From Nitrosopumilus sp. (GTDB taxonomy: Archaea; Thermoproteota; Nitrososphaeria; Nitrososphaerales; Nitrosopumilaceae), in NCBI GenBank assembly GCA_965249555.1, contig OZ252243.1, positions 1,216,001 to 1,280,000 on the forward strand: a stretch of 64,000 nt of DNA, written 5' to 3'. A program made the translations under genes and the position numbers. A model generated the notes under the pieces. The model was not told the DNA's origin, did no database searches, and worked only from the letters and a program-made list of their open reading frames with translations. Numbering within the stretch: position 1 is the first letter of the stretch; the number at the start of each line of letters is the position of its first letter. Below are positions 1,667-52,932 of this stretch, piece after piece.

Positions 1667-3086
1667 GTATGTATCAAGCACTTAGATGTATTTTATCATC
1701 TCAGGAAACATGTTCAATCCCCTTATTCTCCATGTCTCAAAGCATGTGAGAAAGACTGAGATCATCCTCATGCCCTGATCACTCTTCATCTGCCCGCGAA
1801 CATTCCTCTGCATCACGCACTTTCGAATGGAATTCTCTGCATCATTGTTAGTTGATGGAACATCGCCATCCATGACAAACGTAAACATGTTGTTTCTTGC
1901 AGTCTTTAGCTTCTTGCCAAACTGAACCATCTCTGTATCACCTTTCAAATATCGTGCAATGATACGGTCCAGCTGTTTTAGTAAATCATTCCTGTACGTT
2001 TCCCGCCGTTTTGTATAACGATTACTCACACTCCAAACCCTGGCATGACCTAGCATATCTGAGAATTTCTCATATAGAATCCTGGCCTTTTTGTCTTTTG
2101 ACTTTCTTGCCAGATATTTGGCATCGCGCTGCAGGTGTGCGGTGCATCTCTGCTTTGTGTTATCACAAAATACGGTCCTGTACGGAGCATATCCATCAGA
2201 CACTAGGGTTCCTTTGAATTTTTTCCAGCGCTTTTTTAGAACATTGGCACCTCTGCTGTACTCTAAGGTATACTGTGCCCTAGTCTTGCTTCTTGCAACC
2301 CACATCCATCCATTCTTTCCATCAATTGAAAATCCTGTCTCATCGATTCCAAGAATCTTCTCATTCACGATTTCACTGTGGATGTCATTGTAAAATGGCT
2401 CTAACATCACACTACCGAGGCGAAGAATGGCTTGTATTGTCGTATTGCTGATTTCTAATCCATATCTTTCATAGAGTGTGATTCTGATAGCATCGTATGG
2501 CAATCTCTTTGAGTACAGTGAGATGATCTCGCGTATCACTGAACCACCAAAACATCCATGTGGTGGAAGGTTTCCAGTGGTTTGAAAATTATCAAAACAG
2601 TTCTTGCATATGTATTGATACATGACATGCTCAGTCACATCGTAAGATGTTGGTGGGGGAATCTTGACCATTGACCTTTTGCAGATTTTGGTCTGATGAA
2701 TGTTATCACTGCCGCATTTGGGACATGCATCTGATTTGTGGTATATGGTATTATTTGGTATGAATTTCTGTGTCTTGCCAACGTGTCCTGCTATTCCACC
2801 ACGTCTTGATTTGCCTGACTGTCTGTGTTGTCTTTTTTGCTTTTTTATTCAATGGAATTTTTTGATGGCGGAGAGTGCGCATTCTCATAATATGACAATC
2901 TTTTTTGTAGTTCCTTGTTTGATTCTATGAGATTTTCTATGATTAATTTTAGTTGTTTTATCTTTGCTTGTAGCTGTATGATGATTTTCTCATGACCACA
3001 ACCTGACATGTTTTATATGATGATTTAGTTTATCTTAGATCTTTTTGTGTAATGATATTGATTTGTACGTGAAGGTTGATACATAC
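1667..3086 (-). mobile_element. IS66-family element, single-ORF (ISBst12-like) type, frameshifted copy
   Basis: Termini GTATGTATCAA(1667) and TTGATACATAC(3086); close homolog of 29285-30726 but 22 bp shorter. No matching 8-bp TSD. It truncates a short ORF starting ~1593 (MSEDDEKPAKG...). Confidence 0.9.
1682..3009 (-). pseudogene. IS66 transposase (TnpC-like), frameshifted near 2850
   Basis: DETG, SDGY, QRCTAHL and STNNDAE motifs in ORF 1682..2671; the N-terminus (MSGCGHEK) is in another frame. Confidence 0.88.
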
Positions 3087-3094
3087 TAACTACG

Positions 3095-4023
3095 TGAGAC
3101 TTGGGCATAATGATTTACAAAAAAACCAAAACTTTTCTCTAACAACAAAGCATTCTTTTCACAATCCTTGGATTCTCACTTCCAATTACACAGTTACAAT
3201 ACACTGCCAACTGATACGCCAACACGCAAATCAGCACGAATGATTATATATTCTCAAATCCTTTCACTGGAACTGTTCTAATGCTAAACGTATCCTTGAT
3301 TATCTCAAAGGAACAAGATATGGAAAAATTCGTGAGCGGTTATACGTTCTAATGCTAAACGTATCCTTGATTATCTCAAAGAGTGCTTCAATTGATATTT
3401 TTCTCTGAGAATATAATTTCTGACCAACTGCTGAATTGTAAAACCCTATCAACTTTGTTCTGTCTGGTGTGCGTAGAATGATATTTTTTGACTGGACAGA
3501 TCAATCTCATGGCATTATTCTTAGTTGACTTGTATGGTTTGGAATCATCATATGCAGGATCTCACCATATACTATTCATCAATCCAGAAAGTGACTCTCA
3601 ATTTTTCATATGGCTTGCTATCATGAACATTTGCAGTAGTTACACATGGCAGATAATGGAACCAGTCTTCCTGCACTGCAACTCATGTGTAGTTTGTATC
3701 CATACGCCCAACCCTTTGATTTGGAGAATCCCCACCAGTGTGTTGTCACTTGGAATTCTTATCCATGACTTTACGATGTATAATTACATCATTAGAACAG
3801 CTGAATAGACATATGGCCGTCCCCGTCTCACTGCATTTTCATACAGATATAGTGTTCCAACCAGATACAAAACACCAACAAGAAATGACTCACATAGAAT
3901 ATTGCCAGGGATTTTTATTTGTAATCATTCCAATGAACAAAACATGATGAGATTCTTTGCTTTTTCTATTTGAATAATTTGAGAAATCGGTTAAAAATGA
4001 GAATTGATTATGCCCATGTCTCA
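3095..4023 (-). mobile_element. Decayed IS5/IS982-like DDE insertion sequence
   Basis: 17-bp TIRs TGAGACTTGGGCATAAT / ATTATGCCCATGTCTCA (1 mismatch). Minus-strand fragments GWAYGYKLH, DPAYDDS and RKISIEALFEIIK are broken by stops and frameshifts. Confidence 0.75.
3275..3381. repeat. Perfect 36-bp direct repeat flanking a unique 35-bp insert (repeat-spacer-repeat)
   Basis: GTTCTAATGCTAAACGTATCCTTGATTATCTCAAAG at 3275-3310 and 3346-3381; insert 3311-3345. Confidence 0.95.
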
Positions 4024-50688: not shown

Positions 50689-52932
50689 ATGAAAAAACAA
50701 TATCTTTTAGGATTTTTACTTTTACTTACCTCTACCGTTGGTATGTTACCAAGTAGCATATTTGCAACTGAAGGAATTGATTCTGATGGAGATGGAGTAC
50801 CAAACGCTCTTGATTTTTGCCCTAACCTTCTTGAAGATTATGACCCACAATATGGAAATGATATTGATGGCTGTCCTGCAGACTTTGTTCCATGGTATGA
50901 TGCAGACTTTGATGGAATACAAGATCATCTAGATAACTGTCCAACTGTAAAGGAAACTTACAATAGATTCCAAGATGAAGACGGCTGTCCTGATTTATCA
51001 CCTGTTGATGGAAAAGGTATTGCTGATTCTGATGGTGATAATTATCCTGATTATCTGGATTTATGTCCAAACCAACCAGAGACATTCAATGGCATTGATG
51101 ACAAAGACGGTTGCCCTGACGATGTCTTTATTTTAACAGATAGTGATCAAGATGGCATTTCTGATACAATGGATGCATGTCCACTAGAACCTGAAACTTA
51201 CAATCTTTACTTAGATGAAGACGGCTGTCCAGACTCTGTTGATACAATAGATTCAACATACACTTTCCCAGATACTGATGGTGATGGAATTGATGATAGA
51301 TGGGATCAATGCTTAAACGAGCCTGAAAATTACAATGGATTCCTAGATTGGGACGGATGTTTTGATGTATCTGGTGCAACATCTAATGCTTTGATTGATT
51401 CCGATTATGATAGCATTCCTGATTTTGTTGATGCTTGTCCATTAGACCGTGAAAATTACAATAAATTCCAAGATGAAGACGGTTGCCCTGATGAAATTGA
51501 ATTTTCAATTACAGGTGATTCTGATGGTGATGGTATTGCAGATATTTCTGATATGTGTCCTTATGCTAAAGAGACTTACAACAAATTCCAAGATGAAGAC
51601 GGTTGTCCTGATGCTATATACGACAATAAATTAACTGCTGATACTGATGGCGACCTAATTCCAGATGTTTTAGACTTGTGTCCAAACCAACCAGAGACAT
51701 TCAATGGATTCCTAGACTCTGATGGCTGTCCTGATAGCTTTGATTCTGTACTTGATTCTGATATAGATGGTATTGTAGATACAATGGATGCATGTCCACT
51801 AGAACCTGAAACTTACAACTTTTTCAAAGATGAAGACGGCTGTCCTGATGCCACTGGCTCTATCATTTTATCTCATCCCTTTGCAGATGTTGATGGTGAC
51901 GGTGTAGATGATAGATGGGATGCATGTCTTGATGAGCCAGAAAACTATAATGGTTATTTGGATTCTGATGGATGTCCTGATGTTCCAGGAATCTCAAAAT
52001 CTGCATTACCTGATTCTGATTATGATGAAATCCCAGATCATTTAGATCAATGTCCAACATTAGCTGAAAGATACAACGGATTCCAAGATGAAGATGGATG
52101 TCCTGATGCCTTAGCTTATGATTCCTTTGGAGATGCTGACTTTGATGGAGTTACTGATGATGTGGATGAATGTCCTTATGCCAGAGAAACTTACAACAAA
52201 TTCCAAGATGAAGACGGATGCCCTGATGCTATATACGACAATAAATTAACTGCTGATACTGATGGCGACCTAATTCCAGATGTTTTAGACTTGTGTCCAA
52301 ATCAACCAGAGACATTCAATGGCATTGATGACAAAGACGGTTGTCCTGATAAATTTGTATTTACACTTGATTCTGATGGTGATGGTATTGCAGATATTTC
52401 TGATGCATGTCCACTAGAACCTGAAACTTACAACTTTTATCAAGATGAAGACGGCTGTCCTGACTCAACTGATTCTATTACTCCATCTCACATCTGGGAT
52501 ACTGGATTCGGTATCGGCGCATGGACTGGTCCTGACTCAACTGATTCTATTACTCCATCTTACATCTTTGCAGATGTTGATACTGATGGTATAGATGATA
52601 GATGGGATGCATGTATTGGTGAGCAAGAGAACTTTAATGGATACTTGGATTGGGACGGTTGCCCAGATGTGTTAGCAGCAGAATCTACCATACCTACAAG
52701 TATTGACTCTGATGGTGATGGATATTATGATACCATTGATTCCTGTCCAACAAGCCCAGAAACATGGAACAAGTACAATGATCATGACGGCTGCCCAGAT
52801 ACTGCTCCAGAACAACAGAGATTTGCCCATGATGATGATCTAGATGGCATCATTAATGATGAAGATTCATGTCCTCTTGATCCTGAAGATTATGATGGAG
52901 ATAGAGACGATGACGGCTGTCCAGATAACTAA
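50689..52932 (+). CDS. Secreted thrombospondin type 3 repeat protein 3
   Basis: ATG 50689, signal peptide nearly identical to protein 2; contains a 24-aa in-frame insertion. Confidence 0.92.
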   Translation: MKKQYLLGFLLLLTSTVGMLPSSIFATEGIDSDGDGVPNALDFCPNLLEDYDPQYGNDIDGCPADFVPWYDADFDGIQDHLDNCPTVKETYNRFQDEDGCPDLSPVDGKGIADSDGDNYPDYLDLCPNQPETFNGIDDKDGCPDDVFILTDSDQDGISDTMDACPLEPETYNLYLDEDGCPDSVDTIDSTYTFPDTDGDGIDDRWDQCLNEPENYNGFLDWDGCFDVSGATSNALIDSDYDSIPDFVDACPLDRENYNKFQDEDGCPDEIEFSITGDSDGDGIADISDMCPYAKETYNKFQDEDGCPDAIYDNKLTADTDGDLIPDVLDLCPNQPETFNGFLDSDGCPDSFDSVLDSDIDGIVDTMDACPLEPETYNFFKDEDGCPDATGSIILSHPFADVDGDGVDDRWDACLDEPENYNGYLDSDGCPDVPGISKSALPDSDYDEIPDHLDQCPTLAERYNGFQDEDGCPDALAYDSFGDADFDGVTDDVDECPYARETYNKFQDEDGCPDAIYDNKLTADTDGDLIPDVLDLCPNQPETFNGIDDKDGCPDKFVFTLDSDGDGIADISDACPLEPETYNFYQDEDGCPDSTDSITPSHIWDTGFGIGAWTGPDSTDSITPSYIFADVDTDGIDDRWDACIGEQENFNGYLDWDGCPDVLAAESTIPTSIDSDGDGYYDTIDSCPTSPETWNKYNDHDGCPDTAPEQQRFAHDDDLDGIINDEDSCPLDPEDYDGDRDDDGCPDN
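52457..52567. repeat. 37-39-bp direct repeat flanking a unique 33-35-bp insert (period 72)
   Basis: GTCCTGACTCAACTGATTCTATTACTCCATCTyACATCT at 52457-52495 and 52529-52567 (1 mismatch). Confidence 0.93.

Follow-up and report, generated by a model that had tools for sequence, protein, structure and literature searches.

Introduction

Cas1-Cas2, the adaptation complex of CRISPR systems, reportedly also inserts spacers off target; Nivala, Shipman and Church are said to have described such 'non-canonical' integration and the resulting 'neo-CRISPR' seeds in 2018 (Nat Microbiol). Here we report on a window of 64,000 nucleotides (C1:1216001-1280000, C1 being the only contig) from the genome of an ammonia-oxidising archaeon, Nitrosopumilus sp. 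(GCA_965249555.1; G000; 2,230,439 bases, 34% G+C). This window contains a decayed copy of an insertion sequence (IS) that occurs many times in the genome, and within it a 35-nt insert is bracketed by two identical 36-nt copies of IS DNA, a structure that we call scar #1. We find it very probable that scar #1 arose by off-target Cas1-Cas2 integration of a prespacer derived from the cell's own chromosome, and the type I-G Cas4/Cas1-Cas2 module of the same genome is the likely agent.

Off-target integration is cited as experimentally established (PMC7054753, PMC6698737, PMC9456107, bioRxiv 10.1101/148544). According to citing papers the events in E. coli needed overproduced Cas1-Cas2, and evidence from natural genomes, in two other species, has been called 'circumstantial' (bioRxiv 10.1101/148544). 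In vitro, Pyrococcus furiosus Cas1-Cas2, with no further protein, carries out full-site off-target integration at sites that share features with the repeat (PMC6698737). For type I-G (formerly I-U) systems, adaptation in Geobacter yields mainly 36-bp spacers with an upstream TTN protospacer adjacent motif (PAM) in ~50% of unique spacers, and with the I-G module in E. coli ~70% of unique spacers are plasmid-derived, so that the remainder come from elsewhere (PMC6547450). The I-G Cas4/1-Cas2 complex makes the spacer-side integration correctly in only 60-70% of events in vitro (PMC10504553).

Scar #1 resembles the 'neo-CRISPR' seeds in its spacer-sized insert, its non-CRISPR site and its duplication of one repeat length; on our reading dependence on an adaptation module would be shared as well, as would the possibility, in principle, of seeding an array. 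With canonical I-G adaptation it has in common the 36-nt repeat family, spacers of ~36 nt and an imprecise second site (PMC6547450, PMC10504553). A TTN-type motif stands upstream of the insert's source, TTN being the Geobacter motif, which may not be the host's. Scar #1 differs in its target, which is unrelated IS DNA and not a leader-repeat junction, and the scar inserts are ~2 nt shorter than the resident spacers. As in the P. furiosus reactions, integration would be full-site and into non-CRISPR DNA (PMC6698737). Unlike the E. coli overproduction events, the scars described here are natural and come from an archaeon that has type I-G; they number 12 in a core set and up to 18 in this one genome, recur in two sister species and include several inserts that can be traced to self DNA. 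We found no report of off-target integration in type I-G or in this archaeal group among open-access papers and preprints, and earlier natural examples may be better documented than the open-access literature shows. Off-target integration itself is already established and scar #1 would be a new natural example of it; what is unusual is how many scars there are, how they recur in sister species that have the same I-G system, their traceable self origin and the in-frame insertions into genes.

Scar #1 is an insertion into a decayed IS copy

The IS copy that carries scar #1 lies on the minus strand at window positions 3095-4023 and is bounded by 22-nt terminal inverted repeats (3095-3116 and 4002-4023) that are 86% complementary. 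Its transposase remnants are IS982/IS5-like, a weak assignment (the IS982 model matches a fragment of an intact copy with E = 0.0015). A search of the genome with this IS returned 76 matches. The scarred copy is 5-10% diverged from its paralogues and lacks ~270 bp present in other copies, between query positions 646 and 647 (window 3735-3736), and thus was already defective apart from the scar.

A repeat search placed the two 36-mers at window positions 3275-3310 (left copy, DR1) and 3346-3381 (right copy, DR2), 100% identical and 71 nt apart from start to start, with the 35-nt insert between them at 3311-3345 on the plus strand. A perfect 36-mer recurring at 71 nt within 64 kb cannot be chance. 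An earlier sequence-only reading of the window had claimed a 36-bp duplication bracketing a 35-bp insert, and had further claimed that deleting the insert and one copy restores the transposase frame. Both claims held. Translated from the minus strand, the window copy gives ...IEALFEIIKDTFSIRT (...FSIRT) and then meets a stop within the insert (YNRSRIFPYLVPLR*); downstream of the insert the transposase frame is picked up two bases out of frame as FEIIKDTFSIRTVPVKGFENI*. IS copies without the insert run through this region in a continuous single frame, ...IEALFEIIKDTFSIRTVPVKGFENVQSF...

The same reading had proposed other IS copies as the place to seek the empty allele, and we found it in every one that covers the site. 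When the IS copies of this genome were aligned with MAFFT, 17/17 of those covering the locus contained one 36-mer and no insert. These copies align to the left and right parts of the scarred copy with a 36-nt overlap, which indicates that each holds a single 36-mer without the insert. IS copies of the sister species G007, G009 and G015 also match as two pieces (query up to 611 and from 647), and in one G007 copy for which the coordinates were compared the pieces overlap by 34 nt, so no insert is present. In Logan contigs from two further organisms (X23, X24), precisely these 71 nt are missing. Scar #1 is an insertion.

The site lies in a multicopy repeat, where assembly errors can occur, and we considered whether scar #1 could be a misassembly, or local DNA that was duplicated by slippage. 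One Logan contig (60 nt, run X20) matches window positions 3281-3340 without differences, 30 nt on either side of the DR1/insert junction; this support is weak and X20 may be the genome's own source data. Among the Logan contigs listed, none bridges the insert/DR2 junction or spans the whole scar, which is uninformative either way. However, slippage cannot import DNA, and the insert is non-local, absent from the 17 empty copies and identical to a locus 254 kb away. The same structure recurs at loci that are unique, and each of three genomes assembled separately contains it. An artefact or slippage origin is hardly conceivable in our view.

Source of the insert

We found that the insert is a 35/35 copy of C1:965252-965286 and that the identity ends at both insert borders. 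In a BLAST search of the genome the insert was found only at this source and at the scar. The source is intergenic, between two minus-strand genes, in a neighbourhood that we take from the translations to hold cobalamin-synthesis and glycosyltransferase-type genes, and TTT stands directly upstream of it on the plus strand. In the closest sister species, G007, the flanks of the source locus are conserved and its middle has diverged (87% identity over 386 nt). The locus is therefore native to the chromosome, and on this comparison the insert was copied recently from the version of it that this genome carries. The sequence-only reading had held that the repeat is host DNA and the insert foreign. 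The first half stands, given the 17/17 IS copies; the second does not, the insert being self DNA that is foreign only to the IS. Scans of genome_contigs and metagenome_contigs returned no match to the insert, and records of the window's own genome may be excluded from these sets. No mismatch was seen over the 36 + 36 + 35 nt of scar #1. Judged by this identity the event is recent; the host IS copy diverges from its paralogues by 5-10%.

A genome-wide family of scars

We scanned the chromosome for direct repeats at all periods from 20 to 300, starting from seeds of 14 exact matches and allowing mismatches in the extension. Pairs without other repeats nearby were kept and the two CRISPR arrays described below, A and B, were left out. 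The scan returned 49 isolated pairs, 23 of which have a repeat of 28-40 nt, and 15 of these 23 fall at period 69-75 (binomial chance 3.6e-19 if periods are evenly spread). Direct repeats of scar-like period, which the sequence-only reading had proposed as something to scan for, are therefore recurrent in this genome. Three more scars (C1:16547, C1:19053 and window 52457) lie near other repeats and were dropped by the isolation filter. We defined a core set (n=12) by a duplication of 35-39 nt with at most one mismatch and a period of 69-75, and a wider set (n=18) that includes four in-gene cases with 2-5 mismatches. Inserts and targets differ across all scars.

When compared by BLAST with the chromosome, 8/19 orphan inserts were matched. 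Robust unique sources were obtained for six inserts, scar #1 and three others at 100% identity, one at 97% and one at 94%, and these sources are ordinary genes, an intergenic stretch and a tRNA-His gene. One insert comes from a multicopy IS (C1:1840225, the single scar with I-B-like geometry, namely a 29-nt duplication and period 64) and one has a doubtful source (86% identity, E = 0.011). Robust chromosomal sources exist for 6/12 core scars, or 7/12 counting the doubtful match. For three inserts without a self source an exact full-length scan of viral_contigs, a weak test, gave 0 matches each.

The second scar in the window spans positions 52457-52567 at period 72, with 39-nt copies (one mismatch) at 52457-52495 and 52529-52567 around a 33-nt insert at 52496-52528. 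It lies in frame within a 766-codon open frame, a unique gene. Orthologous genes are empty in 5/5 relatives, the left and right matches overlapping by 34-39 nt. The insert is 94% identical to C1:1099184-1099216, and the gene from which it derives is conserved elsewhere in the relatives.

In open frames of at least 240 codons, all eight scars (8/8) have a period divisible by 3, as against 2/10 of the others (Fisher p = 0.001). This frame-preserving pattern fits selection acting as a purifying filter. Three in-frame scars (C1:16547, 18809 and 19053; periods 75, 72 and 75) were seen in a single open frame of ~6500 codons (C1:1593-21293), and another, C1:23778, is found 2.5 kb further on.

In scar C1:2050963, the insert matches 36 nt within the tRNA-His gene (C1:601730-601803), and two insert bases next to the left target copy differ from that gene. 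Its true donor may be another copy of the tRNA segment, for example on an integrative element. Three putative sources, C1:965252, 984192 and 991557, fall in a 26-kb stretch close to where cumulative GC skew peaks, at ~1.01 Mb (clustering P = 0.013). We do not claim a source hot spot, because the 984-kb match is the doubtful one (86%, E = 0.011) and the skew plateau extends to ~1.5 Mb; a connection with a replication terminus is no more than a lead.

The genome encodes an apparently intact type I-G system

The sequence-only reading had stated that the window holds no cas genes, which is correct; they lie ~575 kb away. A k-mer scan identified array A at C1:640019-643538, with 48 repeats, each of 36 nt, and 47 spacers that measure 35-44 nt (mode 38) at periods of 71-80, and a degenerate repeat at its low-coordinate end. 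Cas7g/Csb1, Csb2, Cas3g (705 bits) and Cas8g/Csx17 (525 bits) are encoded on one side of the array, and a Cas4g/Cas1g fusion (731 bits, cut-off 560) and Cas2 (35 bits, cut-off 24.5) on the other. All of these genes are open frames, and Cas4g/Cas1g and Cas2 are without internal stops. The locus is apparently an intact type I-G system. Its leader would lie between cas2 and the array, a position that we presume because the far end is degenerate and G009 shows the same layout. The array A repeat forms a 7-bp hairpin (-8.2 kcal/mol, z = -3.9), and changes to the stem in G009 and G051 are compensatory.

The 36-nt duplication of scar #1 equals the array A repeat in length, and its 35-nt insert is inside the 35-44 nt range of array A spacers, 2/47 of which are 35 nt long. 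A comparison of the scar with resident array lengths had been put forward in the sequence-only reading; it turned up a 36-nt repeat, spacers of 35-44 nt and both cas1 and cas2. Together with the empty alleles in 17/17 IS copies and the recurring scars, this supports the claim of that reading that scar #1 arose by ectopic acquisition through Cas1-Cas2.

Array A has two scars next to it. One (C1:643692-643801; L021 11692-11801) falls within the presumed leader and extends over the final cas2 codons and stop; these are preserved in the second copy, leaving the protein unchanged. The other (C1:649261-649370; L021 17261-17370) divides a tyrosine-recombinase-like gene into two open reading frames (ORFs). 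In G009, the cas2-proximal end of the I-G array (L035 3621-3856) begins with periods of 66, 59 and 64, that is, with spacers of ~30, 23 and 28 nt, and the deeper periods are 71-76; the newest positions hold unusually short spacers.

Proposed origin of scar #1

From the geometry of scar #1, its empty alleles, the insert's source, the enzymes encoded and the recurrence of scars we infer an integrase, an order of steps and an inert product. A 35-nt prespacer would have been cut from the cell's own chromosome at the intergenic C1:965252-965286, beside TTT. Its 3' ends would then have attacked opposite strands of the decayed IS, and not the leader-repeat junction, in two transesterifications at points ~36 bp apart, the spacing that the complex normally uses across a 36-nt repeat. 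Gap filling would have copied the 36 bp between the attack points, giving target copy, insert and target copy.

The product is probably inert, since the 36-mer lacks the identity and the hairpin of the repeat, the scar is embedded in a dead IS and its insert has a perfect target in the cell's own chromosome, and inertness would explain the retention of a spacer that matches the chromosome. Full-length self matches were found for 0/47 array A spacers and 0/60 array B spacers, the best being 20 nt. Spacers that match self may be lethal where an array is working but tolerated where a scar is inert, which would account for self matches that are missing from the arrays and kept in the scars.

We also considered the possibility that scar #1 is a working mini CRISPR array of the 'neo-CRISPR' kind, transcribed and processed, for example for self-regulation. 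It has a repeat-spacer-repeat structure, its insert has a perfect chromosomal target, and the TTT upstream of that target fits the I-G TTN PAM (PMC6547450). However, it lies in a decayed IS and has no leader, and a functional self-targeting guide should be lethal with an intact Cas3g. The duplicated 36-mer, moreover, is not recognisably a repeat. The sequence-only reading had seen CRISPR-repeat likeness in its ends (GTT..AAT and AAAG), and this did not rise above chance. We took the best identity to the array A repeat in both orientations and compared it with that of 2000 random genomic windows; the 36-mer matches at 13/36 (p = 0.23). It folds at -1.0 kcal/mol (z = -0.28), without the array repeat's hairpin, as compared with -8.2 kcal/mol (z = -3.9) for the real repeat. 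A working mini-array is thus most improbable, and we prefer to see scar #1 as the by-product of off-target integration.

A stand-alone mini-array of a different kind was found at C1:1884690-1884798 (L025 8690-8798). It consists of two perfect, genuine 36-nt I-G repeats around one spacer, is 1.24 Mb distant from array A and has a GNAT acetyltransferase gene and an unknown ORF as its neighbours. A check of its context revealed ordinary genes and no cas genes nearby. An orphan scar, C1:1882077, lies 2.6 kb from it.

The second adaptation module

The genome also carries array B (C1:1609811-1613821), a type I-B array with 30-nt repeats and 60 spacers of 35-41 nt (mode 36), whose cas1 (315 bits) and cas2 (31 bits) are open frames. 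In this locus (C1:1613800-1626000), IS1595, IS66 and IS5/IS982-like elements stand between the array, cas1-cas2 and the effector genes. We asked whether the I-B Cas1-Cas2 could have integrated the insert of scar #1 or supplied its prespacer. Consistent with such a role, array B spacers fit the inserts (~33-39 nt if the duplication is 36) better than the array A mode of 38 does, the adaptation genes are open, and the scar at C1:1840225 comes near to I-B geometry. In contrast, an I-B ruler should duplicate ~30 nt, and the duplication is 36 nt in scar #1 and 35-39 nt in the perfect scars. Scar periods (71.9) likewise depart strongly from those of array B (66.4, p = 9e-11), and the I-B locus is interrupted by the IS elements named above. 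G051 has scars, and the I-G fusion is its sole match in the Cas4g/Cas1g scan; a separate I-B cas1 appears as a second, sub-cut-off match in G000, G009 and G014. We therefore consider an I-B origin unlikely, and favour the I-G module.

Casposons, which occur in this archaeal genus, are kilobase-sized elements with terminal inverted repeats, ~14-15 bp duplications and a Cas1-family casposase. A Cas1-family integrase and a target-site duplication would be common to casposons and scars, whereas size and terminal inverted repeats set casposons apart. The only two Cas1 homologues in this genome are both CRISPR-linked, so a casposase is not available.

Scars and type I-G systems across genomes

Above the cut-off, the Cas4g/Cas1g fusion was present in 5/61 genomes of the genus. 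We applied the same script to the first 396.2 kb of five genomes and counted isolated pairs and those at period 69-75. Among the genomes with type I-G, G000 had 9 isolated pairs (5 at period 69-75), G009 had 8 (6, plus one at 66) and G051 had 14 (5). Without type I-G, G007 had 2 pairs, of which 1 was at period 69-75 with 5 mismatches, and G002, which has no cas1, had 6, of which 1 was at period 69-75. A rough test of 17 vs 2 gave p = 0.005, an overstated value that includes the period-66 pair and takes related genomes as independent. The I-G repeats are 36 nt long in G009 and G051 as well.

This distribution bears on a non-CRISPR origin, in which filler DNA was captured during repair of nicks ~36 nt apart, or an integrase or transposase of a kind not yet known acted with a 36-bp stagger. 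The link of an enzyme to the event is drawn from sequence, the targets show no repeat-like sequence, and G002, without any cas1, has one perfect 30-nt pair at period 72; all three would be compatible with such an origin. However, scar frequency tracks the presence of type I-G in the five sampled genomes, and the narrow 69-75 period band matches the combined length of one repeat and one spacer in the resident I-G array. Each of the 19 orphan inserts is different, with no shared sequence, no terminal repeats and no recurring element, and there are only the two CRISPR-linked Cas1 homologues and no available casposase. To our knowledge no transposase or repair pathway gives 33-39-bp duplications with unrelated 32-39-nt inserts, which also counts against a non-CRISPR origin. 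We judge such an origin very unlikely.

Observations that fit off-target integration poorly

Several observations weigh against off-target integration by the I-G module, or limit how far it can be taken. Scar periods have a mean of 71.9 (n=18), compared with 74.1 (n=47) for array A (Mann-Whitney p = 1.6e-4). This difference of ~2 nt suggests that off-target products are not a simple sample of on-target ones. The length of the duplication also varies, being 35-39 nt in G000 and often 33 in G009, so that the 36-bp ruler is approximate. Such a loose ruler at the second site agrees with the 60-70% spacer-side accuracy seen in vitro (PMC10504553). The duplicated targets are unlike the array A repeat, only 1/19 scars reaching p < 0.05. 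In this they differ from the P. furiosus off-target sites, the scar targets being at chance similarity to the repeat with a weak junction bias only.

We found no consistent PAM motif in the flanks of the eight self-derived sources. TT occurs at -3/-2 upstream of 3/8 sources in one orientation and 0/8 in the other, by estimate about what base composition gives. No array spacer has a known target, so no PAM could be derived for the resident I-G system. At the junctions the bias is weak: across 48 half-sites (24 scars, three genomes), position -2 is G/C in 64% (p = 2e-4), position -1 is depleted of A, and +2 and +3 are enriched in T. In scar #1 each of the two half-sites is CT|(G/C)TT, in keeping with this bias.

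The attribution to a particular enzyme comes from the sequence, and the I-B cas1 and cas2, with their 30-nt repeats, form a second adaptation module that could conceivably serve as a prespacer source. The comparison across genomes sets three genomes against two, in partial samples of related and hence non-independent genomes. Lastly, the in-gene scars S18809, S95142, S512988 and S1290057 (2-5 mismatches) could be ordinary protein-level repeats.

Implications

In our judgement the chances are about even that the I-G Cas4/1-Cas2 is an ongoing and fairly frequent mutator in this lineage of ammonia oxidisers, inserting short segments, mostly of self DNA, at numerous sites outside CRISPR arrays. 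If so, the scars would be a natural and largely unselected record of naive spacer capture, and in-frame blocks of 23-25 codons would be added to genes, a route to coding novelty and to seeds of new arrays. A genome in which a dozen scars or more can be dated could be used to measure how often the adaptation complex misses the array in the wild, which DNA is captured once selection against self-targeting is removed, and how such insertions affect genes. The traceable sources, and the empty alleles seen in paralogues and in sister species, provide the material for this measurement. Genomes with scars are a source, too, of natural data on the target sites of the I-G integrase. For CRISPR array finders they call for caution, since scar pairs may be called mini-arrays.

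Neighbourhood of the scarred IS

The scarred IS copy is adjoined by an ORF for an IS66-family transposase at window positions 1682-3009 (329 aa, 213 bits), which has a small, coiled-coil-like ORF as its neighbour. Some 390 bases of the IS66-family element (window 2700-3087) recur at 93% identity at at least five other places in the genome.

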